Source: Escherichia phage LF82-9. Taken from it: a stretch of DNA of 64,000 nt. Location of the stretch: the sequence record PV660452. One strand, written 5' to 3'. Under the pieces are notes generated by a model. That model did not search any database. It had not been told where the DNA came from and saw only the letters and a list, made by a program, of their open reading frames with translations. Shown here piece after piece: positions 1-50,472 of the stretch. The number at the start of each line of letters is the position of its first letter. The first letter of the stretch is position 1. The translations under genes were made by a program, and so were the position numbers.

Positions 1-754
1 TTTGATAGTACTCAGTTTTAGTTGGTTTAAAAATTCGAATCAGCGCTTCTTCAGGATACTTATTTCTGTCGAAGCTATTATTTGGATCGGTTATATAAAG
101 CGGTTGACCTAATTGAATTGCACATTCAACCACTTGTTCAAAACGATAACATGGGTCACTAATTCGAAATGGATGAAAAATACCATCTAGATGAATAGGA
201 GCCAAATCACCTACAAGACGCTGCATGATGGAAGGACGTATAACTTTCTGAGTTACGATAATCTTATTACCATCTGCACCGGCGTTAACCAGCACTTCTT
301 TTTGACGTTCATTCAACACGGTAGTTTGAAGTGAACGATTAACTGACAACATATCGGTTTTTAAGAATTCGTCAATATAAAAACGTGGTTTATTAGGGTC
401 TGCCGTGATATTGAAATTGAATTCTACATCAAAAGCGCCGTCATATCCAGTGATATCTGTTATTAGAAAATCACAATCATAATAAGCAATTAATGAATCA
501 ACCACAAATTCATTTTCAGACCAGAAATATTTACGAGTGTTATACGCGTTATCTTTATACCATAATGGAACAAACTTAAATTCCGGGAAAAGACGTTCAC
601 ATTCTTTAATATCAGATGCATTACGTGGATATGTAATCACATCACCTGGATTAGCACGGTGCAAATGAAGTTGGAAGTTGCCATCCTTAAGGATAGCATA
701 CTGTCCAGTTTCATAAGACCGCATACTCAAGATAGGTACGCGGAAAATAGCCAT
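1..754 (-). CDS. hypothetical protein, partial (continues past window start), at the position T4 gives to beta-glucosyltransferase; candidate DNA sugar transferase
   Basis: Hand translation of minus strand is open from ATG 754..752 to position 1 (MAIFRVPILSMRSYETGQYAILKDG...), start overlaps stop of gene 42 homolog; no similarity to T4 Bgt visible by eye. Confidence 0.5.
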   Translation of the reverse strand, partial: MAIFRVPILSMRSYETGQYAILKDGNFQLHLHRANPGDVITYPRNASDIKECERLFPEFKFVPLWYKDNAYNTRKYFWSENEFVVDSLIAYYDCDFLITDITGYDGAFDVEFNFNITADPNKPRFYIDEFLKTDMLSVNRSLQTTVLNERQKEVLVNAGADGNKIIVTQKVIRPSIMQRLVGDLAPIHLDGIFHPFRISDPCYRFEQVVECAIQLGQPLYITDPNNSFDRNKYPEEALIRIFKPTKTEYYQ

Positions 755-1470
755 TAGTCAAGGAATCCTTTAACATAATCAAAATCACGTTCAAACACAT
801 GGGCACTTACCATGGTATGAGTATAATCACCAACTTCTACACCACATTCGTTAGCGATATAATGAAGTAATTTTCCTTGGAGATAAAAATCCAACTGCAT
901 AACAACAGCACAGTTCTGAGAACGCATATGACAGTGGGTATAAAGCTTACCATCGCGAATATAATAAGTCACTGAGTCAGTACATGGATATTCAAGTGTT
1001 TCGTCCGAATCAAGCAAAGCCTGATCAGAACTTTCTAGAATTTGGAACACAACTCTTCGAGAGTTAGGTTTCTCTTTAAGTTCTTTTAGAAGAGCTGGTA
1101 ATTGGGCCGCAATGCGAGGACCATAGAAAGTGTTGAAGTTCGCCGGCAAAGCGTCTGATTTAGGTTTAGAAATAAATTTAGCGACATTAGGATATGCCTT
1201 AAACGCTTCTTCTGCATCAGTACCACCAGAAATCATAAACTTCCAGAAGTCTTCGGCATATTCATAAGAGATGCGGTTAATACGTGGGTCGGTCATTTTG
1301 AATGATGATGGATTGTCAACAACTACTGTCATGGACCCGATTTCATTACAACGTCCAATACGAGAATCAGTTACGAATTCAGGATTTTCTAAAATTTCAC
1401 GATTGACTGCTTTAAATGCGGCTTGAAAATCTGCGGCTTTGATATATTTCATTGTGTTATGTTTTCCCAT
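754..1470 (-). CDS. 42: dCMP hydroxymethylase (gp42 homolog, thymidylate-synthase fold), divergent from T4
   Basis: Motif PCTDSVTYYIRDGKLYTHCHMRSQN aligns with T4 gp42 MCTNTVQYLIRDKK..MRSND (catalytic Cys; Asp at cytosine-specificity position); ATG at 1470 with GAGGT SD. Confidence 0.8.
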   Translation of the reverse strand: MGKHNTMKYIKAADFQAAFKAVNREILENPEFVTDSRIGRCNEIGSMTVVVDNPSSFKMTDPRINRISYEYAEDFWKFMISGGTDAEEAFKAYPNVAKFISKPKSDALPANFNTFYGPRIAAQLPALLKELKEKPNSRRVVFQILESSDQALLDSDETLEYPCTDSVTYYIRDGKLYTHCHMRSQNCAVVMQLDFYLQGKLLHYIANECGVEVGDYTHTMVSAHVFERDFDYVKGFLD

Positions 1471-1512
1471 GTTTACCTCAATACAATTTATTATATACTC
1501 AATTCGTAAAGC

Positions 1513-1752
1513 TTATTTGAATTTCTTGGCAATGTTGATATAACGTAAAGCTTCAGAATCTATACTTCCAAGAACACTATGAAGGAATGCATCAGTGTAG
1601 TATTCCAATTGAACAGGTTCTTTAATCACTTTAGCCGCTTTGGTTTCAAACAGGCCCATAAGGGCCTTTTTAAGAATTTGTTCGTTAGTGTTCAGTTTTA
1701 TAGTCAAAATCTCTTCATTAAGTTGGTGGTTAAAAGTTTTTCTAGAAATCAT
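1513..1752 (-). CDS. hypothetical small protein
   Basis: 79-aa ORF co-oriented between the Cys-rich ORF and gene 42. Confidence 0.4.
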   Translation of the reverse strand: MISRKTFNHQLNEEILTIKLNTNEQILKKALMGLFETKAAKVIKEPVQLEYYTDAFLHSVLGSIDSEALRYINIAKKFK

Positions 1753-2909
1753 TCCGGGTACCTCAAAGCGTCATCAGAGTTAGTTATATCAATAATAGAT
1801 ATAGAGTTTTCTGATAACCCATTTTTAGATAACTGACGTTTATAATATCTTTCACAATATGTACACGTCGTCCCGCAGATTTCATTAGCACAATCGAAAT
1901 CTGGATGTCTGAACCACCTTTTTTCTAAAAAACCGTCTAACAATGAGGTTTCAATATTTACTGTATGTGAAAACTCAGTCTCATTTTCAAGAGTGAAAAT
2001 AGTCTCTAAAGGCTTCCACAGTTCTAACAAATTACCTTCAAACTTTTCAGAAGCGTATGCTTCAAGAACTTTCAAAATGTAGTCTGTGCTACCTGTACGT
2101 CCTGAAACTTTGAATTGAGTGATACCAATATCATTATAAAGTTTCAAATCTTGAGGACGAACAAAACGAGTTCTCAACCAGTTAAATGGGTCTGTATCAC
2201 GAGCTTTAATGCAGTGTTGCATTGGATATCCATTTAAGGATTTAGCATCATCAGCTGTAACATCAGTACTATGGAAAATATAGCAAGAGTCACGATAACT
2301 ACAATGTGTTGTATACCCTTTACCAGCATTAGAACAGAACTCATTTACAAGAACTTCAAATATTATATTGTTCTTATTGCAAAACTCTGCTGCACGCTTC
2401 AGGAAAGAAACTGAACGGTTCTTATGAATTCCACAGCAGACCTTTTTGATATTGTATTGGTCATGTAAGTATTTTATTTGAGTTACAGCATCGACATGTA
2501 GAATTGTTGAAACTTCAATCTCAATGTCTTTATTGACTTCACGAACAATTTCCATAACAACAGGGTTAGCGATAGTAATACGCCATACGCCTATTGACCA
2601 AAGATACTGAACATAATCCTGAATAGCTTTCTTCTTCCACTCGACTAGTTCTCTTTTTGAACCAGGATTTATCGTGTTGAGTGTATAGTTAAAGCAAATA
2701 CCTAATTCGTTACAACGTTTAACGTAATCTTCTAACATCTTTTTGTCAACGTCAGGAAGCCTAAAATCAGGTCTGGCTGCTACAAAAGCCATTTCTCTTG
2801 TAGAGCCATATACTTCGTTTATCAAGCTATTAGGATAGGTTTTATTGAGCTCTACGATTTTATCAAGAAGAGCTAAATCAAAATTCGTTCCGATTTTAAA
2901 AGTATTCAT
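1749..2909 (-). CDS. hypothetical Cys-rich protein in the sugar cluster (C-terminal CxxxCx5CxxC cluster; possible metal/Fe-S binding; function unknown)
   Basis: 386-aa ORF, ATG at 2909; C-terminal CANEICGTTCTYC motif; weak resemblance to U32-type enzymes not verifiable by eye. Confidence 0.6.
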   Translation of the reverse strand: MNTFKIGTNFDLALLDKIVELNKTYPNSLINEVYGSTREMAFVAARPDFRLPDVDKKMLEDYVKRCNELGICFNYTLNTINPGSKRELVEWKKKAIQDYVQYLWSIGVWRITIANPVVMEIVREVNKDIEIEVSTILHVDAVTQIKYLHDQYNIKKVCCGIHKNRSVSFLKRAAEFCNKNNIIFEVLVNEFCSNAGKGYTTHCSYRDSCYIFHSTDVTADDAKSLNGYPMQHCIKARDTDPFNWLRTRFVRPQDLKLYNDIGITQFKVSGRTGSTDYILKVLEAYASEKFEGNLLELWKPLETIFTLENETEFSHTVNIETSLLDGFLEKRWFRHPDFDCANEICGTTCTYCERYYKRQLSKNGLSENSISIIDITNSDDALRYPE

Positions 2910-2965
2910 TTTTTTGCATCTCGCGTTAATTGATGCGATGGTTTTTGCAGGTCTTACTTAAATTA

Positions 2966-3367
2966 TTATAGATTTGGTTTATATGATTTAAATGTTTCGA
3001 ATTCGCCTTTATTCATAAGAGCTTTGAATTCGTCAGGACGCATAGCTTTGTCGTCGATAATCCAATCATATACTGGTTTATGTGTTAGCAAATTATGGTA
3101 CTTCAAACCAATGTTTTCCAAGTTCTGAATCAGACTTGGGAGAATGTCAATTGCTATACGACCAGGACCTACCGACTTCATACCACGGGCAGTGTAAAGC
3201 GTTATGGTATGCCCTGCATCATACAGAGCATTAATGGCAGACACCATTTCGACGTCTGGTTTGAAGTTCACGTAATCACGATTGTTATTCCACTCTGTTA
3301 TACAATCATCGACATCAAAACAAAGATTAAGCATGTTTTCTACACGGTGCATTAGATTCGTTCCCAT
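2966..3367 (-). CDS. HAD-superfamily phosphatase/phosphomutase-like protein
   Basis: N-terminal FDVDDCITEW matches HAD motif I (DxDx[T/V]); 133 aa; start uncertain (overlaps upstream gene by 16 nt). Confidence 0.6.
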   Translation of the reverse strand: MGTNLMHRVENMLNLCFDVDDCITEWNNNRDYVNFKPDVEMVSAINALYDAGHTITLYTARGMKSVGPGRIAIDILPSLIQNLENIGLKYHNLLTHKPVYDWIIDDKAMRPDEFKALMNKGEFETFKSYKPNL

Positions 3368-5037
3368 TGATGAGTGATATCGCCACCGATTGGACGATAA
3401 GAAACACCAGTTTCTTTATCAGTTAGTACCCATTTACCAGGATTTTTTGTAATCAGAGTAGCCGTTACAGGTTCTGCTACGTCATAACTAATAGAGCCGT
3501 CTTGAAGTACACGGCCCATGTTACGTAATTGCTTAGTCAGAAGTTCCATACCTTTATAATATGCGGCTACCGCTTTAAGTGGATTATTCTTGAAATAACC
3601 ACCTAATGCAATCCAGATAATTGCTACGGCCAAATGATGATACTCGTTAAACGAACTCATCTTTCCATATTTGTAAACTAATGGATTGATGTTAATAGTC
3701 ACATTACAAGTTGTTTCATCAATAGTAAACTGTCCCCAGGTCGGATTAGCATTGAATTCATCATAACCTGAAACAGCATAAAGCACTTTAGCTTCATCGT
3801 ACAATTTTGGCCCGTAAATCTTGGTTTCGCCAAAATATCCACGAGGGTCGATAAACTTGACTTCGCCGTTATCAGTAATCATAGTATTACTGAAGTTTGG
3901 GTCACCGTGAATAACAGAGTACTGTCCCTGAGAACGGTTATGATAACGAATAAGATGTTCTAAAGCTTGTTTCAACATTGGCTTCAGACGTCCAATTTTA
4001 GTGTAGTTCACGTGTGTGATTTTACCGAATGAATCAATCAATGGCTGAATGCTTTCACAACGATCAATAACTTTCGTATAGAACTCTTTAGTGAAATCAC
4101 AGCGAACAGTTTCAGGACTTACAAAATAAGTGTCCGTGCTGAATTTCAGTGCATCTAAAATTGCATCAACAATTTGTGGACGAGCAAGACTTGATTTGGA
4201 TTTAATATATTCAAATGCCGGCTTACCTTTAATACGTTCCATTTCAAAATTATTTTCATTTACCGAAACTAACTGAGGAACTGAATCTGATTTCACTTTC
4301 AAATACCATGAAATCTCATCTTTTTGAAGAGCTCGACCTTGTTCGGTTAACGCGAATTTAGTTACAGTTTCTTCGCCAATTTCAACTGCATTAAAACTAC
4401 GATTCAGTTCACGAACTTCATGAGCCTTTTCAAGTTTAGGCATATCACCTAAATCAATTAGATTCATAAGCTCTGATTTATTGAATGCACTGCCGTAAAG
4501 GAATTCTACGAAATCACGGCCTTTGCAGTATTCGTGAATTTCCTCATCAGTAGAACCCATGTAAAATTCCCAATCTTTGAACTGATAAATTCCTACAACA
4601 TTACCGCCTGTTGAACCTACGTTAGTGATATTTTCACCATCGAAATTATATCGACATTCATCACCCTTAACATAGATTGCGTTAACATTCCAAGACCATG
4701 AACCAAAATCGGGAATAATATCACACCAGTTAACAATTACATTATGGCCATCTAAATCTTTATATAATTTAGCAAGAGCATAAGCAGAACCATACGCTTC
4801 ATCAACTGTACGAATAGTCACATTGAACCCTTCTTGCTCACAATAAGCTCGAACAGTTTCAGCAAATTTTGAATGAACTACTACAATAATTTCATCTGCG
4901 CCAAGGTCAGAATAAATTGTATACAAATTGCTCAGAATAGTGTCTTGTTTATAGTTAACAAGCACCTTAGGAATATGATGCGTTATTGGATACAAACGAG
5001 TTGCCAGTCCAGCACCAAGAATAACAGCTTTTTTCAT
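3352..5037 (-). CDS. bifunctional sugar-phosphate nucleotidyltransferase (N-terminal) / sugar kinase-like (C-terminal, APH/choline-kinase fold)
   Basis: N-terminus MKKAVILGAGLATRLYPITHHIPKVLV resembles GlmU/RmlA-type NTP-transferase G-x-G-x-R motif; C-terminal HGDPNFSNTMITDNGEVKFIDPRGYFG resembles kinase catalytic loop HGDxxxxN...D. Confidence 0.75.
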   Translation of the reverse strand: MKKAVILGAGLATRLYPITHHIPKVLVNYKQDTILSNLYTIYSDLGADEIIVVVHSKFAETVRAYCEQEGFNVTIRTVDEAYGSAYALAKLYKDLDGHNVIVNWCDIIPDFGSWSWNVNAIYVKGDECRYNFDGENITNVGSTGGNVVGIYQFKDWEFYMGSTDEEIHEYCKGRDFVEFLYGSAFNKSELMNLIDLGDMPKLEKAHEVRELNRSFNAVEIGEETVTKFALTEQGRALQKDEISWYLKVKSDSVPQLVSVNENNFEMERIKGKPAFEYIKSKSSLARPQIVDAILDALKFSTDTYFVSPETVRCDFTKEFYTKVIDRCESIQPLIDSFGKITHVNYTKIGRLKPMLKQALEHLIRYHNRSQGQYSVIHGDPNFSNTMITDNGEVKFIDPRGYFGETKIYGPKLYDEAKVLYAVSGYDEFNANPTWGQFTIDETTCNVTININPLVYKYGKMSSFNEYHHLAVAIIWIALGGYFKNNPLKAVAAYYKGMELLTKQLRNMGRVLQDGSISYDVAEPVTATLITKNPGKWVLTDKETGVSYRPIGGDITHQWERI

Positions 5038-5078
5038 GTTGTGGTCCTCATTGGTAAGTAGGAGTATTGTACACTATT

Positions 5079-5222
5079 CTAGTTAAAGCATTCATACTTT
5101 GCCTGTAGACCAATCATAATCCATCCAATTACAAGTGTTGGAATCATTACTGGAGCCGTTAAGCTCCAGTAGATAGTCATGACAAGCATCAATAGTAAAA
5201 GTCCTATTGTTATTGCTTTCAT
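5079..5222 (-). CDS. small hydrophobic protein (47 aa), not in ORF track
   Basis: Hand translation MKAITIGLLLLMLVMTIYWSLTAPVMIPTLVIGWIMIGLQAKYECFN; ATG overlaps stop of SIS gene (ATGA); lies where T4 has imm. Confidence 0.4.
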   Translation of the reverse strand: MKAITIGLLLLMLVMTIYWSLTAPVMIPTLVIGWIMIGLQAKYECFN

Positions 5223-5854
5223 TGCTCGCCTCGTAACATGGCACCTAGTGCACCGCCTGGATGGAACTTAAGGAAATCATTAGAGGTAAATCCACGTTCA
5301 GACGAAAGGTTGATAGCAAAAGTATCGATAAGCGCTAACAATAATGTAGTGGACATGGTCGGAGCCAGAGAATTCTCATCAACCTCTACTGCGATGCCTG
5401 TACAGAAAGAGTAATCAAAAAGGGCTTCATTTTCTTGTGGAATGTCTGGGTTACAATGCAACAGAATCTGTTTGACGTTCGGTCGAATCATTTTAAGATG
5501 CTTAGCCACGCCTATCATTTCTTCAGTTTTACCAGAACGACTAATATGAATCAACACATCATTAGGCGCAATAAATCCTGCATCACCGTGAGAATAATGC
5601 CCAGTGTTCAAGTACATACTTGGGATACCGAGTGAAGCAAATGTCTCAGAAGCTTTAGTTGCAATATTAGCATTCTTACCAACACCTGTAATAATTACTC
5701 GGCTTTCATAATTACTAAGTCCAGGGCGTCGAAGAGTTTCTAGAATAGCATTATAACGAGCAGGGTTTTGACTAATTACTTTGGCCATAGCGGCCAAAGA
5801 AGAAGCTTGTTTTATGATTGCGTCAATAGCGATATTAATAGGAGTAGTTTTCAT
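5219..5854 (-). CDS. SIS-domain sugar-phosphate isomerase (KdsD/GutQ-like arabinose-5-phosphate isomerase candidate)
   Basis: TGVGKNANIATKASETFASLGIPSMYLNTGHYSHGDAGFIAPNDVLIHISRSGKTEEM matches KdsD-type SIS motifs (GxGKS..ASTGTPS..HGDLG..ISNSGES). Confidence 0.75.
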   Translation of the reverse strand: MKTTPINIAIDAIIKQASSLAAMAKVISQNPARYNAILETLRRPGLSNYESRVIITGVGKNANIATKASETFASLGIPSMYLNTGHYSHGDAGFIAPNDVLIHISRSGKTEEMIGVAKHLKMIRPNVKQILLHCNPDIPQENEALFDYSFCTGIAVEVDENSLAPTMSTTLLLALIDTFAINLSSERGFTSNDFLKFHPGGALGAMLRGEQ

Positions 5855-5894: not shown

Positions 5895-8606
5895 TCAAAA
5901 ATCGAACATATCGAAGAGAGATGCTTTCTTCTCGTAATCGAGTTTCGCTGCTGATGTGAATCCTTCAAGTGGTTTAATAAATGTCTTCTCAAGGAGAACA
6001 GTGTAGTCCATCCAATGAAGTACGTCGTCTTTAATTAAATCTGTGATTTCAGTACCAGAAGGCCATGCGATACATTTATCACCGAACGGGTTTCCTTCAC
6101 GTAAAGGCAGAACATATACTTTTTCACCTTCTACAACTTGTGGAGCATCAATATTACCTTTGATAGCTCGGTTATATGTCAGAATTCCACGAATATGGAA
6201 CGGACATTTAGGACCAGGGAATCCACCAACGTCATATTTAGCAATGTTATTCGCAGAAGATACCGACGCGATGCTAATATAATTCAATTGACGGAATTCT
6301 TTTTCAAACTCTTTAAAATATTCTTGTAATGATTCTTCACCTTCTTGAAGCATACGGCGAATACATTCTTTAAGAGCTTTCTGTACTGCTTTAGGGGTCG
6401 AAGATTTCTGTGTTTCGAGACCCATGATTTTGAGTTTAGGCTCAGCGTATCTGGTTCCTTCCATATCCCACACGTTTAATGCATAACGTTTCTTACCAGT
6501 CCAGAATCCGCCAATACCTTTAGAACCGAGTGGAGGACCAGCGATAGCTTCTCGGTCCATGAACATTAAGTGTTGTTTATTGTTCATGTATTCACACATT
6601 TCACGGAAACCTCTATCAATAGCCGGTTCCATACGTTCACGAGCGAACTTATCTAAGAAGTCTACCCAATGGTTGGTATCACGGAATTTAGATTCACCAA
6701 CCTTATCAATAATTTTATCTGCAGATACGTAAATAGAGTCTGTATCACCATAAAGAACGAAAGCTTCACCTTCTGTACCACAAACTTCGTTCAGATATTC
6801 ATTAACTTTACGTTCAATCCACTGTAAAGCCATTTGCCCGAATGTTGTGATTGCAGTAGCATTACGCAAATCATAATAACGGAACCAAACGTTTCCAAGT
6901 GCACCATAAAGTGAGTTGATGAGCAATTTACGGTTAATCTGTGCAGTCATACCTGCAACTTCAGTACGTTGAGCTCTAAACAACATTTCATTAAGAGATT
7001 TAGCAGACAACTTTTTAATCTTTTCTTTAATCTCGTCAGTGAAGTCAAAACGATAATCAACATCTAATGGTTCATCAACAGAAAGATTAGGATTATGTAA
7101 GGCTTCTTTAATTATTTCACCATTACGTTGAGCTGCAAGCATGTAACCTTTATGTTCTTTACGTTGATTAAAGACCTTAGTGATTTCAGTTGGAACTACA
7201 CCATCACGGTCTTTATAATACATCATGCCGTTAGGAGAGCAACTGTACACATCTGAAGGACGTTCAGCGATTGCGTTAATATAATCATGCAGTGGAGCTA
7301 CTTTAAACGTTCCTGCTATTGTTTCCGGGCTAATATTCACTTGGCGAATAATACTTGGATACAGGGATGTAAGGTCGAAACTCATTACATATTTGTATCG
7401 ATTTGGAATAGGTTCCTTAACAAAAGCACCGGGATAAGGTTGAACCGGGTGAGAACGACCTTGTGGAATCACCTTGCTCTGCTCTTTAAGGCTATTAAAA
7501 ATAATAGCATCCCATGTTTTAATTGGGCTAAACACAGATTGAATCTGTATCTTAGCATAATAACCCATGTCCAAACTCAAGTTGATGAACTGACGCTTAG
7601 CATCAATTTGCAATACACGATACACGTCGATAATGTTATAAGAAATATACCGTTGGTGATTGCTTTCACGAAGCTTAGAAATAGGGCCGTCATATTTCAG
7701 TTTACCAACGTTCAATTCAAATTCTGAAATGTAATCCAGAGAATACGACGGTTGATTGGTAAAAGAGAATTTTTTGTAAAGGTCGATATAATCAAGAACA
7801 GAGATACCGAACAATGTAATGATTTCACGAGAACCATACATGTTTTCGATAACTTTAACACGAGTTTTACGATGTGGTGATAAACGTTTCGCAGTAGATT
7901 CGCCAAAAATATTCTTGATTCGGTTATACACATATGGAATATCAAATGACTCAACGTTCCATCCAGTCAAAATGACAGGAGTTTTCTGTTGCCAGAAGTT
8001 GAGATATTCCATCAACAATTCTTTTTCGTTATCGAACGGCATATAAATGATTTTATCGATAATTTCAGATGGAACTTCATCACCGCCTTGTTCTTGAAGC
8101 TTAGCCGCAATTTCGATAGACCATTCTTCTACATTACCATACGGAGAATTCAATAGATCAAATACGTAGAACCTGTCGTCAATTGAGTCATAATGGGTGA
8201 TAGCATCAATCGGATGTTTTGCTTGTGACGGCTCAGGGAACCCATCCGGAGATGTTACTTCGATGTCGAAGTTAGCCACACGAATTTTTGTATGGTCGTA
8301 TTTGATTTCATAGTTATAAGTGTCAGACAAATACGCCAATTTGAAATCGTCCATGCCGAGTGCTTCAAGTCCGATATCTTCCATGCGTTTAATCCATTGG
8401 GAGGCATCACGCATATTAGCGAACAACTTACGAGTACACGGCTTACCGTAGATATCGAAATATTTCGTAGCCTGACTTTCTGGGCAATGAGCAAACAATG
8501 ATGGTTTATATTCTACTTCACGAGTACATTCACGGCCATTAGAATCGATGTAACGTTCAAAAATTGAATCACCAATCTGTTCAACCGTTAAGTAAAATTC
8601 TTTCAT
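5895..8606 (-). CDS. 43: DNA polymerase gp43
   Basis: 903 aa; matches RB69/T4 gp43 as recalled, incl. DIE exonuclease and YGDTDS polymerase motifs. Confidence 0.97.
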   Translation of the reverse strand: MKEFYLTVEQIGDSIFERYIDSNGRECTREVEYKPSLFAHCPESQATKYFDIYGKPCTRKLFANMRDASQWIKRMEDIGLEALGMDDFKLAYLSDTYNYEIKYDHTKIRVANFDIEVTSPDGFPEPSQAKHPIDAITHYDSIDDRFYVFDLLNSPYGNVEEWSIEIAAKLQEQGGDEVPSEIIDKIIYMPFDNEKELLMEYLNFWQQKTPVILTGWNVESFDIPYVYNRIKNIFGESTAKRLSPHRKTRVKVIENMYGSREIITLFGISVLDYIDLYKKFSFTNQPSYSLDYISEFELNVGKLKYDGPISKLRESNHQRYISYNIIDVYRVLQIDAKRQFINLSLDMGYYAKIQIQSVFSPIKTWDAIIFNSLKEQSKVIPQGRSHPVQPYPGAFVKEPIPNRYKYVMSFDLTSLYPSIIRQVNISPETIAGTFKVAPLHDYINAIAERPSDVYSCSPNGMMYYKDRDGVVPTEITKVFNQRKEHKGYMLAAQRNGEIIKEALHNPNLSVDEPLDVDYRFDFTDEIKEKIKKLSAKSLNEMLFRAQRTEVAGMTAQINRKLLINSLYGALGNVWFRYYDLRNATAITTFGQMALQWIERKVNEYLNEVCGTEGEAFVLYGDTDSIYVSADKIIDKVGESKFRDTNHWVDFLDKFARERMEPAIDRGFREMCEYMNNKQHLMFMDREAIAGPPLGSKGIGGFWTGKKRYALNVWDMEGTRYAEPKLKIMGLETQKSSTPKAVQKALKECIRRMLQEGEESLQEYFKEFEKEFRQLNYISIASVSSANNIAKYDVGGFPGPKCPFHIRGILTYNRAIKGNIDAPQVVEGEKVYVLPLREGNPFGDKCIAWPSGTEITDLIKDDVLHWMDYTVLLEKTFIKPLEGFTSAAKLDYEKKASLFDMFDF

Positions 8607-14002: not shown

Positions 14003-14231
14003 TACACGCTTCAGCCATTTTAAGAATAGAGCCAGGAGTATCGTTGTCCATTATATTAAAGCTAAATTCAACAGCCCAGTCGGTGCAGACATGAACTGCT
14101 TTAACTTCATTGCCTTCAACACGTAATGGCTCAATCCAATACTTGATAGTGTTCTCGAATCCATCATCATCTTTAACGTCTATTTCAACTTCAAGCCCGA
14201 GCCCAGCATTGTTAAATTCATCTAAAGTCAT
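13974..14231 (-). CDS. hypothetical protein
   Basis: 85-aa acidic ORF between 47 and 46. Confidence 0.45.
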   Translation of the reverse strand: MTLDEFNNAGLGLEVEIDVKDDDGFENTIKYWIEPLRVEGNEVKAVHVCTDWAVEFSFNIMDNDTPGSILKMAEACIEDAYNDED

Positions 14232-15247
14232 TGTGTTGCCTCAATATAAAGTTCGTTGGAATATTTAACCAGCGCTTCTCTGTCTTCGTTTGAGATATCT
14301 GGAATCGCGTCAATATATTCTTTAATGATATCTTGAAGTGATTTAATCTCGATTTCCTGGTCGTCATCAGATTCAACACTGTTATCAACTTTAGAAACCA
14401 TACGAAGAGAGTGAACTACTTTTTCAAGTTCAGATTCAAATTTAGTCAACTCTGAATCAATTTCTGATACTATAACACGTACGGCTAGATTAGTATAATC
14501 AGAATAATTGATTTTGCCTTTAAATGGATAAGTGATTCGTCGATGCCATGTTGTTTCATTAGGAATAAATTCCATACGTTCAACATCAGTGTCAAATACC
14601 CAGAATCCGCGAGGGTCGTTCTCGTCACCTGCAGTAAGGGTCCATGGTGTCCCAATATATTTGACGTTAGCAGCTTCAGAGATTGTGTGGAAGTGGCCAG
14701 ACCAGACTTGTTTATAGGTCTTTAAGAAATCAGGTTCAAGCCCATGAGACTTCATTCCTTTATAGAAATAAAAGCCGTTCAGTTCCCAGTGGCCAACACA
14801 ATACGCGGCAGAAGAAGTCTTGATGTGCTCTAAGATTTCACCTGTATTTTCTTCACACATCCATGGAACGATATCAATCAGACATCCGTCAAAATCTACA
14901 GTAGTTGGATGCTCGTAAATAGTAAAGTTTTCAAATTGAGTCAACAATTCAGAAACAGTGTTAGGTGTTATTGTATTCTTAAACGCCATGTCATGGTTTC
15001 CTATCGTGACATGAACGTGAATGCCTGCTTTAGAAATCATATCAACGATTTCACGATTGAATTCCATTGTACGATGTGTTATTGCTTTACGGACGTCAAA
15101 CCAATCACCGTACTGAATCCAAGTTTTAATCCCGTGTTTCTTAGAGTATTCAATTGCTTGACGAATACCATCACGTTGAATATCTTGGACCCATGGGTCG
15201 TCTTGTTTGACTCCGATATGGAAGTCGCCTAAGTGCAAAATTTTCAT
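14228..15247 (-). CDS. 47: recombination nuclease subunit gp47 (Mre11/SbcD-like phosphoesterase)
   Basis: MKILHLGDFHIG, GNHD and GHxH phosphoesterase motifs. Confidence 0.93.
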   Translation of the reverse strand: MKILHLGDFHIGVKQDDPWVQDIQRDGIRQAIEYSKKHGIKTWIQYGDWFDVRKAITHRTMEFNREIVDMISKAGIHVHVTIGNHDMAFKNTITPNTVSELLTQFENFTIYEHPTTVDFDGCLIDIVPWMCEENTGEILEHIKTSSAAYCVGHWELNGFYFYKGMKSHGLEPDFLKTYKQVWSGHFHTISEAANVKYIGTPWTLTAGDENDPRGFWVFDTDVERMEFIPNETTWHRRITYPFKGKINYSDYTNLAVRVIVSEIDSELTKFESELEKVVHSLRMVSKVDNSVESDDDQEIEIKSLQDIIKEYIDAIPDISNEDREALVKYSNELYIEATQ

Positions 15248-15292
15248 ATTATTTCCTCATTAGTTAATTCATTCTATCATCCGTTTATAAAG

Positions 15293-15320
15293 CAAAAAAG
15301 GAACTCCGAAGAGTTCCTAT
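15293..15320 (-). terminator. intrinsic terminator (UUCG hairpin + U6)
   Basis: Minus strand GGAACTC-TTCG-GAGTTCC followed by TTTTTT; overlaps stop of small ORF. Confidence 0.5.
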
Positions 15321-15490
15321 CCACATAGTACACCGTACAGAGGCTCATTTGAACTTTTAAATCGAATGGGCTTGTACGTAATAGTTCCTTCGGCTTTAGC
15401 TTTATCATAAGACTCTTTAAAACGTCTCATTCTTTCTGCTTTGCCTTTACGGATTTTATCGAAATTTTCAGAAGTCGGGATGTTCGTCAT
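15317..15490 (-). CDS. small basic protein (57 aa), not in ORF track
   Basis: Hand translation MTNIPTSENFDKIRKGKAERMRRFKESYDKAKAEGTITYKPIRFKSSNEPLYGVLCG; ATG with GAGGTG SD. Confidence 0.4.
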   Translation of the reverse strand: MTNIPTSENFDKIRKGKAERMRRFKESYDKAKAEGTITYKPIRFKSSNEPLYGVLCG

Positions 15491-15529
15491 GCATAAGCAC
15501 CTCTCAGAAAATGCCTAAATCGATTTCTC

Positions 15530-15751
15530 TCATCGTTTCCACCATTTCTTAACTTGAAATGAATCAACCCACACGAGTTGTTTTGGGTCTGCCTTTACAA
15601 TAGGCGGACAAATTTCTGTAATAGAACCGTCGTGATATTCCTTTTCGGAAATTTTAACACAAAGAGGACCTCCCAATTTAAGGGAGAACCCTGCGTTCAG
15701 CTTCAGACGTTTAAACTTTGTTTGAACTAGCGCCATTAATGATGTCCTCAA
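15530..15751 (-). CDS. hypothetical protein
   Basis: 73-aa ORF in region where T4 carries alpha-gt. Confidence 0.4.
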   Translation of the reverse strand: MRTSLMALVQTKFKRLKLNAGFSLKLGGPLCVKISEKEYHDGSITEICPPIVKADPKQLVWVDSFQVKKWWKR

Positions 15752-16034
15752 TAGCCTGACGAGTAGTAATCCACTGGATTTTAATTAACTTGTCATTGTA
15801 TGGTTGTCGTAGAATATCCCGAGATTTCTTAATAGCATATTCGTAAGCTTCGAAGTTGTTTTGAATTGCTGCTTCTTGAGCATGTGCATAAAGACGGTTT
15901 AGTTCAAAACGATTCTTTTTAAGAATCTTTTCGGATTTTTTACGTGCTTCAGCTTCATTTTTCTTTTGGATTTCTTGTAGCATTTTAGCTACTGCATCTT
16001 CTGCTTCTTTATTTTCAATAATCTCGGTAGTCAT
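15711..16034 (-). CDS. hypothetical protein
   Basis: 107-aa ORF. Confidence 0.45.
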   Translation of the reverse strand: MTTEIIENKEAEDAVAKMLQEIQKKNEAEARKKSEKILKKNRFELNRLYAHAQEAAIQNNFEAYEYAIKKSRDILRQPYNDKLIKIQWITTRQAIEDIINGASSNKV

Positions 16035-16035
16035 A

Positions 16036-16251
16036 TTATCTCATTAAATTAAAATAAAAACGTCCATCCTCTTCAATACAGAACTCGTACTCAACTGGAG
16101 TCCCATTTATTGAAAATGACACGTCATGTGGGTTCAAAGGGTCGATGTCAAAATTAATTTTAAATTCACGACCCAACAGTTTTACCAAATAAGGGATTGC
16201 TTCGTCAAAAGGTTCTTCTAAGTAGTTAGAGATGTCAATTGTCATCCTCAT
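16036..16251 (-). CDS. hypothetical protein (start placed at internal ATG)
   Basis: Track ORF 16036..16329 overlaps gp55; internal ATGs at 16251/16245. Confidence 0.4.
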
Positions 16252-16792
16252 ATAAAAAATCCAAACTAGGCGAATCGCTAACAACTTCCTTCTTTTCAGC
16301 CCCAGGAGCTTTATAAGCGGATTCTTCATAATGCGTCATTTTATCGTAGATGTCTTGAATAAACGTTTCATCTACCAACGCTACCATATCATCGTCATGA
16401 CTGTCGTAGACATTATGAACGAAGTAACTATATTTCTTTGCAACTTCCTTACGTTCTTTTTTGATACGTTGGACAAAAGCATTAAAACAAGCTCGAGTTA
16501 TGTATGCATGTGGGTTATTGTACTTAGTTTCGTCGAAATTATGAAGTCCCTTAATAGAGGCTTCAATCCCATCTGCAATCATCTCCTGCTTCCAAGACTG
16601 GGTATATCCTGAAAAGTTGAAACGTTTGGACAGGCCTTCGGCGATAAGCATAATTGCTAAACCGATGGTATCATTCTGACGAATAATTTTGTTTGGGTCT
16701 TTATTATTTAAGAGCTCCTTTTTCCACTCGATTATAGCGGCGAGAAGCTCTTTATTATTCACATAGTTATTTTTAGGTTTTTGTTCAGTCAT
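16235..16792 (-). CDS. 55: late-transcription sigma factor gp55
   Basis: [17 protein letters not shown].. near-identical to T4 gp55; ATG at 16792 (track start 16810 is TTG). Confidence 0.95.
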
Positions 16793-16812
16793 AAGTACCT
16801 CTTGGCTCAATT

Positions 16813-16849
16813 CATAGGTCTATTATATCATAATATTTAGAGACCTATC
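16813..16849 (-). promoter_or_regulatory. inverted-repeat element upstream of gene 55 (candidate promoter)
   Basis: ATAGGTCTATTATATCATAATATTTAGAGACCTAT. Confidence 0.3.
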
Positions 16850-16864
16850 TTAAAGCACGAGATA

Positions 16865-17134
16865 CTATCGGAGCAAACAATAAGCCTGGAATACTTTTTC
16901 CATTAAACGTTTGAACTCATGGATATCGATATAAAGCTCGGTTAATCCAGCTCCATAAAGAAAATCTAAAAAGTTCTCATGTGTTTCGTTATAGTCGCCT
17001 TCGTTTAATTGAGATACATGAGTTTCCCAAAAACCGACACCTTTAACAAATGGAAAATACGTAACTTTCATAAAGTTGTCGACGTAAAATTCGCCCAGCT
17101 TTTCTTCAGTTATACTGATTCGAGTTAATTTCAT
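16865..17134 (-). CDS. hypothetical protein
   Basis: 89-aa ORF. Confidence 0.45.
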   Translation of the reverse strand: MKLTRISITEEKLGEFYVDNFMKVTYFPFVKGVGFWETHVSQLNEGDYNETHENFLDFLYGAGLTELYIDIHEFKRLMEKVFQAYCLLR

Positions 17135-45842: not shown

Positions 45843-46198
45843 TTTCTACATTCCTTAATAAAGTTTTCTATTGTTTCATTTTCACGTCTAGCTAGGAGTT
45901 CATTATAACTAATCATTTGAGAAGCGTAAACCTTTTTATTTTTCTTGTTATGGTTTATAAAATCGTAGTAAAAATAGACTACAGTACAAAATGATGCGAT
46001 GGATGCAAAGGCTTGAGTATATCGTAAGTCCTGCCATTGGTCTGTGAATCCACCGGTGTTCCCTATAAATCCTAACACAACTCCGTCAATAAGAAATCCA
46101 ACTAATCCAAAGGCAAATCCCATGCCAATACTCATAATAAAAATTAGAATGTTCTCACCGAGAGAAGGCCGTACGGTTAAGAGTTGAGGCTTTTGCAT
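45839..46198 (-). CDS. membrane protein
   Basis: Hydrophobic helices. Confidence 0.45.
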   Translation of the reverse strand: MQKPQLLTVRPSLGENILIFIMSIGMGFAFGLVGFLIDGVVLGFIGNTGGFTDQWQDLRYTQAFASIASFCTVVYFYYDFINHNKKNKKVYASQMISYNELLARRENETIENFIKECRK

Positions 46199-46572
46199 CT
46201 TATTTCCTTAACGAATTCCATAGCTTCTTCATATTCATACTTTTTAACAGCTTCAACATACTGAGCTTGGGCTTTTGCGCACTGAACTTTCCACTCGCGA
46301 ACTCGAGCTCTGTGATGACGGCCTTGGTGCCAATATCCTGCCCAATTAATAGGCATTAATAAAAACGGTACAATAAGTGGTGCGACGAACATTAATGAAA
46401 ACGCTGCATCAGACGTTATAACTTTATTGGAATCTAAAATAGCTCCTATAATCATAAAGATTAAAAATGCTAAAGCTAAAATAGGGCCAAATAGTACTTC
46501 GTTTGGGATTAATTTACGTTTGTATTCGTATGCCCAGGGCTTAATTGGCATGTACAGGGTTGGCTTTGACAT
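46177..46572 (-). CDS. membrane protein (start uncertain)
   Basis: Hydrophobic helices; internal ATGs at 46572/46551. Confidence 0.4.
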   Translation of the reverse strand: MSKPTLYMPIKPWAYEYKRKLIPNEVLFGPILALAFLIFMIIGAILDSNKVITSDAAFSLMFVAPLIVPFLLMPINWAGYWHQGRHHRARVREWKVQCAKAQAQYVEAVKKYEYEEAMEFVKEIRCKSLNS

Positions 46573-47137
46573 ATTCTCTACATTCCATAATAAATTGCTC
46601 AAGGATTAAATTGTTAGTGAAATTAGGACTAACAACCATAGTTTCATAAAGCGCATCAATAGCACTTAAAGCATCAACTCTTTTAAGCAAAGGCTTGCCT
46701 TCATACATAGTTTCAGAATCGATGATTAACGTAAAGTAATATTTTTTATTATCGACTAGAACTTCTGTATCGATATAAAACATATTAGACCTCAGAAGCT
46801 TATCTCTAAAACCATAATAATCTTCTGAACGTTCGCTGATATATTCCCATTCAGTGTTTAAACAACAAACAGACCATGTAGGAGCAACGAAATCAGTGAA
46901 TCTAATATCATGGTCTGCAACTAGTTTAGCAATAGCTCCGATATCATGAATCATAATACCTGGGGCTAATAAAGATTTTCGGCGATTTGCGTATTCAGTT
47001 GTCTCATAAGAAGCTGACCAGTACCATTTACGTCCAGTTGCAACATATCGTAATGAATCAACTAAAGACGTAGGTGGATTTACCTTATCTCGGAACTCTT
47101 CGAACATTGAGTCAATATCATTATTTTGGTTTCGCAT
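46541..47137 (-). CDS. hypothetical protein (ATG with AAAGGAG SD)
   Basis: MRNQNNDIDSMFEEF...; track start is TTG. Confidence 0.5.
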   Translation of the reverse strand: MRNQNNDIDSMFEEFRDKVNPPTSLVDSLRYVATGRKWYWSASYETTEYANRRKSLLAPGIMIHDIGAIAKLVADHDIRFTDFVAPTWSVCCLNTEWEYISERSEDYYGFRDKLLRSNMFYIDTEVLVDNKKYYFTLIIDSETMYEGKPLLKRVDALSAIDALYETMVVSPNFTNNLILEQFIMECREYVKANPVHAN

Positions 47138-47160
47138 GTTAACTCCTTTATTATCCAAAA

Positions 47161-47178
47161 GGAGGACCGGAGTCCTCC
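47161..47178 (-). terminator. intrinsic terminator hairpin
   Basis: GGAGGAC-TCCG-GTCCTCC followed by TTTT on minus strand. Confidence 0.45.
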
Positions 47179-47186
47179 GTATTATT

Positions 47187-47780
47187 TTATTTCAAAGAGT
47201 TAATATATTCTTGTACATCAGCAGAAGTGGTTTCGACACCGGCTGGAGTACCATTGAACGTTTCAACACGAGTCAGAGTGTCTTCGATATCAACCTTAGT
47301 CAGTGCAGCGATTTCAATTACATCATCGGCCGTAGAGATACCAAGGGCATTGGCTGCTCGAGTTTCACGAATGTATTCGAGTTTGATTGCCAGGTTCTGA
47401 CGAGCATCGTCAAGTTCAACCACCTTACGAGCAATTTCAATTCGCATAGCGGCATACCCGTCAGCTTTTGTATTAAGTTGTTCGGCAGTTCGACGATACA
47501 GAAGACCAAGCTTAGCATGCATGGTAACATCTTGTCCTTCAGCCAGGAGCTTACGAATTTCACGTTCCTTAGAAGCGGCTTGCTTGTTCTTTTCATTAAC
47601 AAGTTCGCGAATACGTTTTTCTTCATTAATAGATTTAACAGAAGCCGTTTTTAGTTCTTTGATCTGGGTAATCAACTTATCTGCAGCTGCGTTATACTGT
47701 TCTTCGACAGTCAGATTTTTAGCCATAGCAGTACCCAGTTTAGTGCGGATAAATTCAACAAGTTTCTTCAGTGTGTTCAT
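47187..47780 (-). CDS. coiled-coil protein (PspA-like appearance, unverified)
   Basis: [10 protein letters not shown]...; long heptad-like helical sequence. Confidence 0.5.
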
Positions 47781-47803
47781 ATTATTACCTTTCAATTGGT
47801 GGT

Positions 47804-47850
47804 TTATTATCCAATGAGAGCATTATACTCTGCTCTCAAGAGTTTGTAAA
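47804..47850 (-). promoter_or_regulatory. early promoter with -10 inside a hairpin (copy B of 45-bp repeat)
   Basis: TTTACAAACTCTTGAGAGCAGAGTATAATGCTCTCATTGGATAATAAA. Confidence 0.5.
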
Positions 47851-48078
47851 TTATTTTTTAATCAAATTGACATAAAACTTGGCGTCTTCGGGGTGCATGC
47901 CTTCGCAGTATTCTTCAACCATGAAATTCTTAACAGCTTCATAAGGACCACTCAGATTAAGCTCAGTTGTCCAAAACTTGGAATCTTGGACTGAATCGAT
48001 ACGAACTTCAGGATGACGATTGCGAATAACTTCTTCGGTGTATTCATAATCAACGACATCAATACTAACTTTAGCCAT
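47851..48078 (-). CDS. hypothetical protein
   Basis: 75-aa ORF. Confidence 0.45.
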   Translation of the reverse strand: MAKVSIDVVDYEYTEEVIRNRHPEVRIDSVQDSKFWTTELNLSGPYEAVKNFMVEEYCEGMHPEDAKFYVNLIKK

Positions 48079-48103
48079 TTTGTTTCTCCTCTTGATTTGA
48101 TGT

Positions 48104-48137
48104 GATTACTATAACATAAACGTACTTAGATGTAAAT
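48104..48137 (-). promoter_or_regulatory. early promoter cassette
   Basis: ATTTACA N17 TATAGT. Confidence 0.4.
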
Positions 48138-48290
48138 TATTTCAACGTCACCTTTAGCGGCTTTATAACCTTCAGCCCAAGATACAACAGAGTTTTTATC
48201 TGAGGATTCAAATTCAGGCATTGGACTTTCACCAATATTCACACAGTATGTTTCTTCATTTTCATCGAACCAAATAATTAAAGTAGTCAT
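48126..48290 (-). CDS. small acidic protein (54 aa), not in ORF track
   Basis: Hand translation MTTLIIWFDENEETYCVNIGESPMPEFESSDKNSVVSWAEGYKAAKGDVEIIYI; GGAGTAAACAAA SD. Confidence 0.4.
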   Translation of the reverse strand: MTTLIIWFDENEETYCVNIGESPMPEFESSDKNSVVSWAEGYKAAKGDVEIIYI

Positions 48291-48311
48291 TTTGTTTACT
48301 CCTTTGTAGTT

Positions 48312-48350
48312 GATAAGTCTATAGTATCACCATCCTTGGTGCTTGTACAC
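48312..48350 (-). promoter_or_regulatory. early promoter/stem-loop cassette
   Basis: TGTACA-type -35 with hairpin CACCAAGGATGGTG and -10 TACTAT. Confidence 0.35.
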
Positions 48351-48352
48351 AA

Positions 48353-48616
48353 TTATTTCATATTATTGAAATATTCTTCTGCGATTTCGTCGTTATCATG
48401 GTAAACTTTAGAAGACAGTTTAACATAACCTTCTGCCGTGAACATGTTAATCACAACCTTTACAGTATACCACTGACCGTCTTCATTACCCATTACTGCG
48501 TAAGTTTCAAACATCGGATGATCAGGACCAATAACTTTAATATCATTCACTGTACGACCGAAATCTTCTGAAACACATTTCATAAAGAAGTTGAACAGTT
48601 CGCCGTAATTATCCAT
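48353..48616 (-). CDS. hypothetical protein (ATG with GGAG SD)
   Basis: MDNYGELFNFFMKCV... Confidence 0.45.
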   Translation of the reverse strand: MDNYGELFNFFMKCVSEDFGRTVNDIKVIGPDHPMFETYAVMGNEDGQWYTVKVVINMFTAEGYVKLSSKVYHDNDEIAEEYFNNMK

Positions 48617-48650
48617 TTCATTCTCCAAATTGTTTTCTGTATCAGTAGTT

Positions 48651-48689
48651 GATAGTTGTATAGTACCATGGAAGAACAGGGATGTAAAC
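48651..48689 (-). promoter_or_regulatory. early promoter/stem-loop cassette
   Basis: GTTTACA N17 TACTAT. Confidence 0.45.
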
Positions 48690-48827
48690 AGTTTTGTGAA
48701 AAAATTTTTTAAAAAGTTTTAGGGAATTCTAGGGTCAGGAGGGACAATTAAAAGGTAGGATAATATATTATAAAGGGTATAAACTAAATGATGCCCAGAG
48801 AGGCCCGGAAAGGCCTAGATACCAAAA

Positions 48828-48851
48828 AGCCCCAACCTTTCGGCTGGGGCT
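48828..48851 (-). terminator. conserved terminator hairpin, copy 3 of 4
   Basis: AGCCCCAGCC-GAAA-GGTTGGGGCT then T5. Confidence 0.5.
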
Positions 48852-48858
48852 AAGAATG

Positions 48859-49332
48859 TTATATGATTTGTTTAGCAGACCAAATGCGGTCTTTAATAAT
48901 TTTTTGGATGTCTTCAACATATTCAAGAGAGTGAACATGTGGGTTATCTTTGAAACTATAAGCACGAGCTAGCTTTTGGCCTTCAGTTTTGATTATCAAA
49001 AGTTCTTTAAGAATTGCTTCATACCTAGAGATAATTCCTTTAGCAATATTTTTTTCTTGTGCTGCTTTAGGGTCAGCCTTAGGAGCAGGTTTACCTGAAG
49101 CCTTTGCAAAAGCAGCTCCAGTAGCAACTAAACTTTTCCAAGCCATACTAACTGCATTCCCTGTAAATCCTTCGGCTTTCATATCACGAGCAAATTGGAA
49201 TCGTGATTCATCGGAAGCATCTTTATAGGAATATTTACCCGCGGCAATGGCAGCTTTTGCAACAGCTTGAATTTCAGTGCTAGATGCTTCATTTAACACC
49301 GCTTCATTTAAAAATTGAGCATATGATTTCAT
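48859..49332 (-). CDS. internal protein-like with capsid-targeting N-terminus
   Basis: N-terminus MKSYAQFLNEA; Ala/Lys-rich. Confidence 0.55.
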   Translation of the reverse strand: MKSYAQFLNEAVLNEASSTEIQAVAKAAIAAGKYSYKDASDESRFQFARDMKAEGFTGNAVSMAWKSLVATGAAFAKASGKPAPKADPKAAQEKNIAKGIISRYEAILKELLIIKTEGQKLARAYSFKDNPHVHSLEYVEDIQKIIKDRIWSAKQII

Positions 49333-49368
49333 CTTATTTCCTGTTTTAATTCGTGGTTTTAATATACT

Positions 49369-49376
49369 TATTTATA
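49369..49376 (-). promoter_or_regulatory. late promoter TATAAATA
   Basis: Exact TATAAATA on minus strand 37 nt upstream of ATG at 49332. Confidence 0.45.
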
Positions 49377-49382
49377 CTAAAA

Positions 49383-49406
49383 AGCCCCAACCTTTCGGTC
49401 GGGGCT
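49383..49406 (-). terminator. conserved terminator hairpin, copy 4 of 4
   Basis: AGCCCCGACC-GAAA-GGTTGGGGCT then T5. Confidence 0.5.
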
Positions 49407-49458
49407 AAGCCTTGCGGCAACCTTGTCGGGGTTCCACCTGCTAAGGCAAGTGTTTGTA

Positions 49459-49549
49459 CGAAACGCCGGGATTCGAACCCGGTTATTAAGCAGTTGACGC
49501 TACTCAATATTTTTAAAAGGCCATATCTCGACCATATCCGAACGTTCCG
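49459..49549 (-). ncRNA. tRNA-like element / candidate small stable RNA (not a canonical tRNA)
   Basis: Perfect T-arm CCGGG-TTCGAAT-CCCGG and a 7-bp acceptor-like pairing 49543..49549 with 49459..49465, but 91 nt long and no canonical D/anticodon arms. Confidence 0.3.
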
Positions 49550-49693
49550 TCAAAAACGCTACTCGGCTTACGGCAAAGATATTTCCTCGAATCGATAATT
49601 CGGTGCGCCGTTTCTGCTGTGATGTAAGAGGGCATCAATAAACGCAAAGATTATTAACGCAATTCCTTACTCAGGGAACATCAGTCCGACGAC

Positions 49694-50248: not shown

Positions 50249-50269
50249 AATATTATTCTCTCAATAATT

Positions 50270-50346: not shown

Positions 50347-50472
50347 TAATTAGTTCACAGCAATACCTACTCCAACAATCAAGATGTCTTCACACGAAAT
50401 TAAGAGAAGTGTGATCAGTTCAACCCCTATAATCGCGTCAAGTAGATATTAATGTGACAGTTGTCACAAGTT

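Follow-up and report, generated by a model that had tools for sequence, protein, structure and literature searches.

In phage T4 the gene for the DNA alpha-glucosyltransferase (Agt), a-gt, lies between genes 55 and 47. An earlier note on a 64,000-nucleotide stretch from Escherichia phage LF82-9 (record PV660452; this whole stretch is called the window in the following) had claimed that here the interval holds only small open reading frames (ORFs) and that this, together with a missing homolog of the beta-glucosyltransferase (Bgt), supports loss of the glucosylation system. LF82-9 is very probably an RB69-like phage which carries the small-gene block a-gt.5 to a-gt.2, has an empty slot beside gene 47, and uses arabosyl-5-hydroxycytosine instead of glucosylation. 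That RB69-like phages are missing Agt and Bgt has already been published (Thomas 2018; Lee 2026). DNA arabinosylation is proposed here for LF82-9 from its gene content; the chemistry itself has been demonstrated in RB69 and in Mosigvirus NP.

The interval between genes 55 and 47

On its lower side the interval is bounded by gene 47 (14228-15247, minus strand), which codes for an SbcD-like recombination nuclease subunit of 339 amino acids (aa) with 75.5% identity to T4 gp47 and 99.7% to RB69 gp47. On its upper side it is bounded by gene 55 (16235-16792, minus strand), the product of which, the late sigma factor (185 aa), is 90.7% identical to T4 gp55 and 99.5% identical to RB69 gp55 (tblastn in both cases). 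The 987 bp between them (15248-16234) hold four minus-strand genes of 57, 68, 107 and 71 aa. The earlier note had given these ORFs as 57-107 aa, and its coordinates and sizes were right. None of the six frames is free of stops for more than 109 aa, as compared with 351-400 aa for T4 Bgt and Agt.

Judged by their sequences, the four small genes are orthologues of T4 a-gt.2 to a-gt.5 and not filler. The a-gt.2 homologue (15317-15490, minus strand, 57 aa) matches Pfam DUF5486 (E = 4.5e-28) and PHROG 2140 and shows 94.7% identity to RB69 a-gt.2 and 75.9% to T4 a-gt.2. It is preceded by the a-gt.3 homologue (15530-15736, minus strand, 68 aa; PHROG 1648, E = 1e-33), for which the Pfam search returned no family and which is 98.5% identical to its RB69 and 69% identical to its T4 counterpart. 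The a-gt.4 homologue (15711-16034, minus strand, 107 aa) belongs to Pfam DUF2654 (E = 1.6e-27), with 99.1% identity to RB69 a-gt.4 and 57.7% to T4 a-gt.4. Finally, the a-gt.5 homologue (16036-16251, minus strand, 71 aa; Pfam DUF5491, E = 5.8e-13), the start of which shares 17 nt with the end of gene 55, agrees fully with RB69 a-gt.5 over 69 aa (100% identity) and shows 46.6% identity to its T4 counterpart. The PHROGs of the block are 2140, 1648, 951 and 1169, and its Pfam and PHROG E values range from 1e-13 to 1e-37. A literature search on the functions of a-gt.2 to a-gt.5 gave nothing useful.

The T4 interval does contain a-gt, as the earlier note had said. It measures 3152 bp because mobB (a homing endonuclease gene), a-gt and 47.1 sit between a-gt.2 and gene 47. 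The T4 locus (NC_000866: 35428-40157) has the same flanks, 47 and 55, and the same genes a-gt.2 to a-gt.5, at 47-76% identity, but differs from the window by the additional 2.2 kb of mobB, a-gt and 47.1. The corresponding locus of RB69 (NC_004928: 38972-41536), itself a Mosigvirus, shows the order of the window (47, a-gt.2, a-gt.3, a-gt.4, a-gt.5, 55), lacks a-gt, and encodes proteins with 94.7-100% identity to those of the window.

To these two, the annotated intervals of Klebsiella phage Mineola (Jiaodavirus), Dhakavirus Bp7 and Salmonella phage S16 were added, so that five genera were compared. Genes 55, a-gt.5, a-gt.4, a-gt.3 and 47 are kept in all five, and the variation is confined to the slot beside gene 47. 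This slot holds mobB, a-gt and 47.1 in T4, a-gt alone in Mineola and an unrelated 115-aa ORF in S16 (L015 3170-3517); it is empty in Bp7, in RB69 and in the window. Downstream of gene 55 the block runs.5,.4,.3,.2 in the window as well as in T4, RB69, Mineola and S16. The gene a-gt.2 is annotated in four of the five genera, the exception being Bp7; an unannotated gap of 297 bp lies at its expected place there (L014 4134-4432). In the window, 69 bp separate the stop of a-gt.2 from the start codon of gene 47, and no Agt is encoded in them. S16 has no a-gt at the slot, yet Bgt-type enzymes are present in this phage, and therefore an empty slot alone is no evidence against glucosylation.

Agt and Bgt were sought outside the interval as well. 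When the T4 enzymes, Agt of 400 aa (CAZy family GT72) and Bgt of 351 aa (GT63), were used as tblastn queries against the 64-kb window, no match was better than E = 0.5, and at E <= 1 there was none for Bgt. With LF82-1, of which the complete genome was searched, the best Agt match had E = 0.042 over 69 aa and the best Bgt match E = 4.9. The earlier statement that a Bgt homolog is absent agrees with these searches, in which no orthologue was found in the window or in LF82-1. The weak Agt match in LF82-1 (142634-142813, E = 0.042) was put down to chance: it was not reproduced in the window, where the counterpart ORF gave no match in a direct BLASTP comparison with T4 Agt and has no Pfam family. 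Hidden glycosyltransferases among eight other large unassigned ORFs of the window were likewise looked for with Pfam and not found.

In a collection of 50,697 phage records, Agt homologues occurred in 657 and Bgt homologues in 126. The bearers of Agt are Tequatrovirus-type coliphages (at least 90% identity), Klebsiella phages of the Jiaodavirus type and Raoultella phages (about 66%), and a few below 60%. Among the matches listed for either enzyme, which are a sample of the matching records, there was no Mosigvirus. RB69 has been reported to lack both the alpha- and the beta-glucosyltransferase gene (PMC6024577; PMC13326640).

For the part of the genome outside the window, about 105 kb of roughly 170 kb, LF82-1 and RB69 stood in as proxies. 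The sequence matches of the window place the phage in the RB69-like group of T-even phages, genus Mosigvirus, and its early and middle genes, all of them on the minus strand, stand in T4 order (55, 47, 46, 45, 44, 62, regA, 43). Megablast with 14200-16900 matched 710 phage records, with ten 'LF82' phages at 100% and p000v, NBG1, JK45, moha and other RB69-like phages at about 99%. LF82-1, assembled at 169,999 bp, is the closest complete genome and is 99.8% identical to the window over 1-45931 and 52785-64000 (57 kb). From 45931 to 52785 the window departs from it (81-97% identity, with gaps), and no record of the phage collection exceeds 93% in the stretch from 46 to 52.7 kb. This is probably a hyperplastic region; its LF82-1 counterpart is annotated with tRNA and internal-head-protein genes.

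A putative gene cluster for arabosyl-5-hydroxycytosine

The left end of the window (1-5854) encodes a set of proteins with 92-100% identity to RB69 gp55, gp52:53, gp51, gp50, gp49, gp48 and gp46:47 (tblastn), and their domains match as well. It corresponds to the arabinosylation cluster which RB69 carries between gene 43 and uvsX; in the window gene 43 (5895-8606) is its right-hand neighbour. In RB69 and NP, mono- and di-arabosylated 5-hydroxycytosine fully replaces cytosine in the DNA (PMC13326640; PMC13390438). The RB69 modification had first been described, in 2018, as arabinosyl-hydroxymethylcytosine (PMC6024577).

The gene in place of T4 gene 42 (754-1470, minus strand) codes for a thymidylate-synthase-like 5-hydroxy-dCMP synthase (Pfam Thymidylat_synt). 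Its product is 99.2% identical to RB69 gp48, with two substitutions (A17T, N60T), and 24.8% identical to T4 gp42. RB69 gp48 has been shown by experiment to make 5-hydroxy-dCMP with O2 and flavin, and D169N is the signature of such synthases (PMC13326640). In the alignment with E. coli ThyA, the numbering of which is used here, the signature is present in the window protein as RSQN (D169N), QLD (N177D) and EYPC (L143E). The gene-42 homologue, with just 25% identity to T4 gp42, carries this 5-hydroxylase signature, so that the phage probably makes no hydroxymethylcytosine. Agt and Bgt, which need this base as their substrate, would then be of no use to it. In public records the gene appears as 'thymidylate synthase', 'dCMP hydroxymethylase' or 'deoxycytidylate 5-hydroxymethyltransferase', names which are systematically misleading.

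The genes for the supply of UDP-arabinose are all present, with 98-100% identity to RB69 and the expected domains. They comprise an arabinose-5-phosphate isomerase (RB69 gp55 homologue; 5219-5854, minus strand; 99.5% to RB69p055; Pfam SIS; NCBIfam KpsF/GutQ, E = 2e-32), a bifunctional sugar-1-phosphate nucleotidyltransferase and kinase (RB69 gp52:53 homologue; 3352-5037, minus strand; 99-100% to RB69p052/p053; Pfam NTP_transferase and a weak kinase-like match), and a HAD-like sugar phosphatase (RB69 gp51 homologue; 2966-3352, minus strand; 98.4% to RB69p051; NCBIfam capsule biosynthesis phosphatase, E = 1.6e-13). The roles in the arabinose pathway given here to the phosphatase and the nucleotidyltransferase/kinase are those of PMC13326640. 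These neighbours of the gene-42 homologue would turn ribulose-5-phosphate into UDP-arabinofuranose. Two further members of the cluster, a peptidase-U32-family protein (RB69 gp50 homologue; 1749-2909, minus strand), probably an Fe-S enzyme, and a 79-aa ORF (RB69p049/gp49 homologue; 1513-1752, minus strand), which is 92% identical to RB69 where its neighbours reach 99%, are taken up below.

The putative first arabinosyltransferase, a GT-B glycosyltransferase (RB69 gp46:47 homologue; 2-754, minus strand), lies directly downstream of the gene-42 homologue, i.e. at the position of beta-gt in T4. The window edge cuts the gene, leaving the N-terminal 251 of 299 aa. An identical full-length protein was modelled with 48 homologues (pLDDT 94.8), and the model assigns a GT-B fold to the beta-gt-locus protein with high confidence; the Pfam search with the 299-aa protein returned no family. 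Its likeness to T4 Agt and Bgt is at the level of the fold only: as a sequence homologue of the two it was rejected, with hhalign probabilities of 0.2% and 0.06%. T4 Agt and Bgt are also longer (351-400 aa). The best structural matches of the 299-aa protein are of the GT4 type. The proposed donor and acceptor are UDP-arabinofuranose and 5-hydroxycytosine, in contrast to the hydroxymethylcytosine which is the acceptor for the T4 enzymes.

A second GT-B enzyme, the RB69p003 homologue, is encoded outside the window: in LF82-1 it lies between rIIA.1 and gene 39, with 99.2% identity. RB69p003 was matched to T4 Agt by HHpred in a 2018 report (PMC6024577). As putative arabinosyltransferases, this enzyme and the one at the beta-gt locus would add one or two arabinoses to 5-hydroxycytosine in the DNA. 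The earlier note had named an agt or bgt homolog elsewhere in the genome as the observation that would speak against the loss of glucosylation. No such orthologue was found in the window or in LF82-1, but these two remote, fold-level relatives are there, and they would do an equivalent job with another sugar.

Two genes of the cluster are differently organized in the RB69 record. The nucleotidyltransferase/kinase is split there into p052 and p053, whereas in the window it is one intact ORF of 561 aa. The transferase gene is likewise split in two in the RB69 record, and it is intact in LF82-1 (L001 5656-6555) and in the identical full-length protein. The RB69 gene split is held to be a sequencing error (PMC13326640); the intact single ORFs in the window and in LF82-1 therefore support this explanation of the RB69 splits.

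Alternative accounts of the empty slot

A plain loss, in which both glucosyltransferases were dropped and the DNA contains unglycosylated hydroxymethylcytosine or ordinary cytosine, would be in line with the empty a-gt slot and the lack of an Agt or Bgt orthologue. It is nevertheless highly improbable. The phage carries a complete cluster for activation and transfer of arabinose, which shares 92-100% identity with its RB69 counterpart. At the beta-gt locus the structure prediction gives a GT-B fold with high confidence, the gene-42 homologue has the signature of a 5-hydroxylase and not that of a hydroxymethylase, and in RB69 and NP the arabosylated cytidines replace cytosine completely (PMC13326640; PMC13390438). 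It is just as improbable that the genome encodes an Agt or Bgt orthologue outside the window and that glucosylation is kept beside arabinosylation. Only 64 kb of roughly 170 kb are visible, which leaves room for such a gene. However, LF82-1, with its 99.8% identity over 57 kb, has no match better than E = 0.04, the 657 bearers of Agt and 126 bearers of Bgt belong to other genera among the matches listed, RB69 is reported to be without both genes, and in a phage without hydroxymethylcytosine the enzymes would have no substrate.

It is quite possible that Mosigvirus never had a-gt, i.e. that the ancestral slot was empty and that Tequatrovirus and Jiaodavirus gained the gene horizontally. This would fit with the presence of a-gt in the slot of just two of the five genera, with the different ORF in S16, and with the company of T4 a-gt, which is accompanied by mobB and flanked by repeated regulatory modules, as is typical of mobile cassettes. 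On the other hand, the Agt proteins of T4 and Mineola are 66% identical, which is about the value for the flanking gp46 (67%) and gp47 (70%). A divergence of Agt similar to that of the flanking proteins fits vertical descent at a fixed locus. Moreover, the flanks of the window are closer to T4 (gp46 82%, gp47 75.5%) than either is to Mineola, so that under vertical descent the common ancestor had a-gt and Mosigvirus lost it. Loss therefore seems somewhat likelier than an ancestrally empty slot. Of the claimed loss of glucosylation, the absence of Agt and Bgt orthologues stood. Glycosylation as such, however, is very probably kept by way of the RB69-type arabinosyl-5-hydroxycytosine cluster.

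The gap between a-gt.2 and gene 47 offers a possible route by which the slot may change. Within its 69 bp an intrinsic-terminator-like hairpin is directly followed by a promoter-like TGCTTTA site. The hairpin (15299-15318, minus strand; terminator scan) has the form AGGAACTC-TTCG-GAGTTCCT, then TTTTTTGC (T run). It overlaps the stop codon of a-gt.2 and marks the point at which mobB, a-gt and 47.1 are inserted in T4. The site following it (15271-15294, minus strand; TGCTTTA-N11-TAGAAT, with 24 nt between it and the ATG of gene 47, which it precedes) is of the MotA middle-promoter type; its function as a promoter is predicted from its match to the T4 consensus. A scan for MotA-type patterns gave 12 matches in the window where 3.8 were expected, and 10 of the 12 lie on the minus strand, which is the transcribed one.

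In T4 the module of a TTCG hairpin and (T/A)GCTTTA occurs twice, downstream of a-gt.2 and downstream of a-gt, and the window site aligns with the motif at both places; in Mineola one TTCG-hairpin module stands on either side of a-gt. Further copies of the hairpin-plus-GCTTTA combination were sought in the window, and its transcribed strand has only that at 15288-15311. The junction adds a small point on mechanism, namely that a-gt forms a cassette with repeated terminator-promoter modules at its borders. Recombination between two copies of the module could excise or insert the a-gt cassette and would leave a single module behind. Promoter-terminator cassettes (PeSL) have been proposed to drive modular shuffling in T4-type phages (PMC2839356, PMC4122927). 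They resemble the module described here in that a stem-loop terminator is joined to a promoter and repeated at the borders of variable genes, and in the role proposed for them in modular insertion and deletion. They differ in that the published cassettes carry early promoters whereas the window module has a MotA-box, middle-promoter-like site. Another site of this kind (TGCTTTA-N12-TACAAT; 5066-5090, minus strand) was seen just upstream of the nucleotidyltransferase/kinase gene, where the RB69 record annotates similarity to the T4 42-imm intercistronic region.

Several points weigh against the reading of LF82-9 as an arabosylating phage with an empty slot, or limit it. It is drawn from gene content. 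The absence of Agt and Bgt from the whole genome, as well as the presence of the second arabinosyltransferase, rests on close relatives, with about 105 kb of the source genome unseen. A biochemical demonstration of arabinosyltransferase activity for RB69 gp46:47 or gp3 was not found in the accessible literature. As to the slot, the recombination mechanism and the direction of the change, loss or gain, are derived from five genera, and promoter and terminator are consensus matches only.

The U32-family protein and what the cluster means

The gene at 1749-2909 codes for a protein with a match to Pfam Peptidase_U32 and a TIM-barrel fold of the U32 type. Ten of its cysteines, candidate Fe-S ligands, are invariant across 35 homologues of 46-85% identity, among them C192, C203, C209 and C233 and the C-terminal group C340-x4-C345-x3-C349-x2-C352. 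Its only NCBIfam match, a weak one, is UbiU (E = 9e-4), and a comparison with the PDB gave no sequence match. For RB69, gp50 is listed just as a 'sugar or heterocycle reductase' (PMC13326640); that paper does not connect gp50 with U32, with prephenate or with the hydroxylases of this family in bacteria.

The known bacterial enzymes of this family are hydroxylases which need no O2 and depend on prephenate. RlhA forms 5-hydroxycytidine in 23S rRNA (PMC5727448), TrhP forms 5-hydroxyuridine in tRNA (PMC6599085), and UbiU/UbiV act on precursors of ubiquinone, which they hydroxylate (PMC6747719) with oxygen taken from prephenate (PMC10990095). The phage protein shares with them the U32 domain and fold, and its invariant cysteines may hold Fe-S clusters, but it forms a separate subfamily. 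A tentative interpretation, to which we give somewhat less than an even chance, is that the phage U32 protein is an O2-independent, prephenate-dependent cytosine C5 hydroxylase, working beside the O2- and flavin-dependent 5-hydroxy-dCMP synthase. The base chemistry proposed for it, hydroxylation of cytosine at C5, would be the same as that of RlhA.

The distribution of neighbouring and associated genes is in part consistent with this proposal. In LC53, a Serratia phage, the gene standing directly between those for U32 and the synthase codes for a type II chorismate mutase (Pfam CM_2, E = 1.7e-11). This mutase has homologues in 54 phage records; where the positions could be compared, the U32 gene is no more than a few hundred bases away. 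LF82-1 encodes a DAHP synthase elsewhere in its genome. Chorismate mutase makes prephenate, and DAHP synthase is the first enzyme of the shikimate pathway. Of the phage records, 221 carry the U32 gene and 212 a DAHP synthase gene; with a union of 242, both are found in 191. Across its carriers and their genera the U32 protein is at least 80% identical, whereas the neighbouring transferase reaches just 44-68%. No U32 gene was seen among Acinetobacter phages, though 57 of them carry the transferase; Acinetobacter is strictly aerobic.

Other observations complicate this view. Dhakavirus coliphages arabosylate their DNA without it, and under aerobic conditions gp48 alone is enough (PMC13326640). 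The idea that U32 is a universal part of arabinosylation was dropped, because neither Dhakavirus Bp7 nor Acinetobacter phage Maestro has the U32 gene in its cluster. In addition, the place of the mutase gene is taken in Mosigvirus by the unrelated, fast-evolving 79-aa ORF, and no recognisable chorismate mutase is found next to the U32 gene in the window. A diverged chorismate mutase was considered for this ORF (1513-1752) and rejected: Pfam gave nothing even at E <= 10, and neither BLASTP nor hhalign showed any signal against the LC53 mutase. Relatives of the 79-aa ORF were seen in Mosigvirus only, and in several database clusters they are shortened to 47-58 aa.

Relatives of the U32 protein with 50-55% identity are also encoded on large phage-like metagenomic contigs (JGI contig Ga0672870_0000001, 466 kb, L008 7447-9086; L009 8001-14360). 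One of them directly follows a gene with a dCMP-deaminase domain. Genes for thymidylate kinase, UDG, deoxynucleoside kinase, 5'-nucleotidase and nucleoside deoxyribosyltransferase lie in the vicinity of these relatives, as do radical SAM/SPASM genes and a second U32-like gene.

If the proposed function were correct, these phages of the gut could make 5-hydroxycytosine DNA during anaerobic infection. They would then possess dual routes, aerobic and anaerobic, like the bacterial pair TrhO/TrhP for tRNA, and the shikimate-pathway genes in these phages would be accounted for. Should it be both correct and new, it would be the first case of a virus with a way to a hydroxylated DNA base that does not require oxygen.

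For the glucosyltransferases themselves, the observation at the a-gt locus adds little: publications on their absence from RB69-like phages go back to 2018 or earlier, and the chemistry that takes their place was elucidated in 2025-2026. Its use lies in a correction of the annotation: LF82-9 should be recorded as a probable arabosyl-5-hydroxycytosine phage, and not under 'glucosylation lost' or 'dCMP hydroxymethylase'. The correct annotation bears on the predicted sensitivity of such phages to restriction enzymes, type IV systems and CRISPR, and on the choice of enzymes for cloning and sequencing their DNA.

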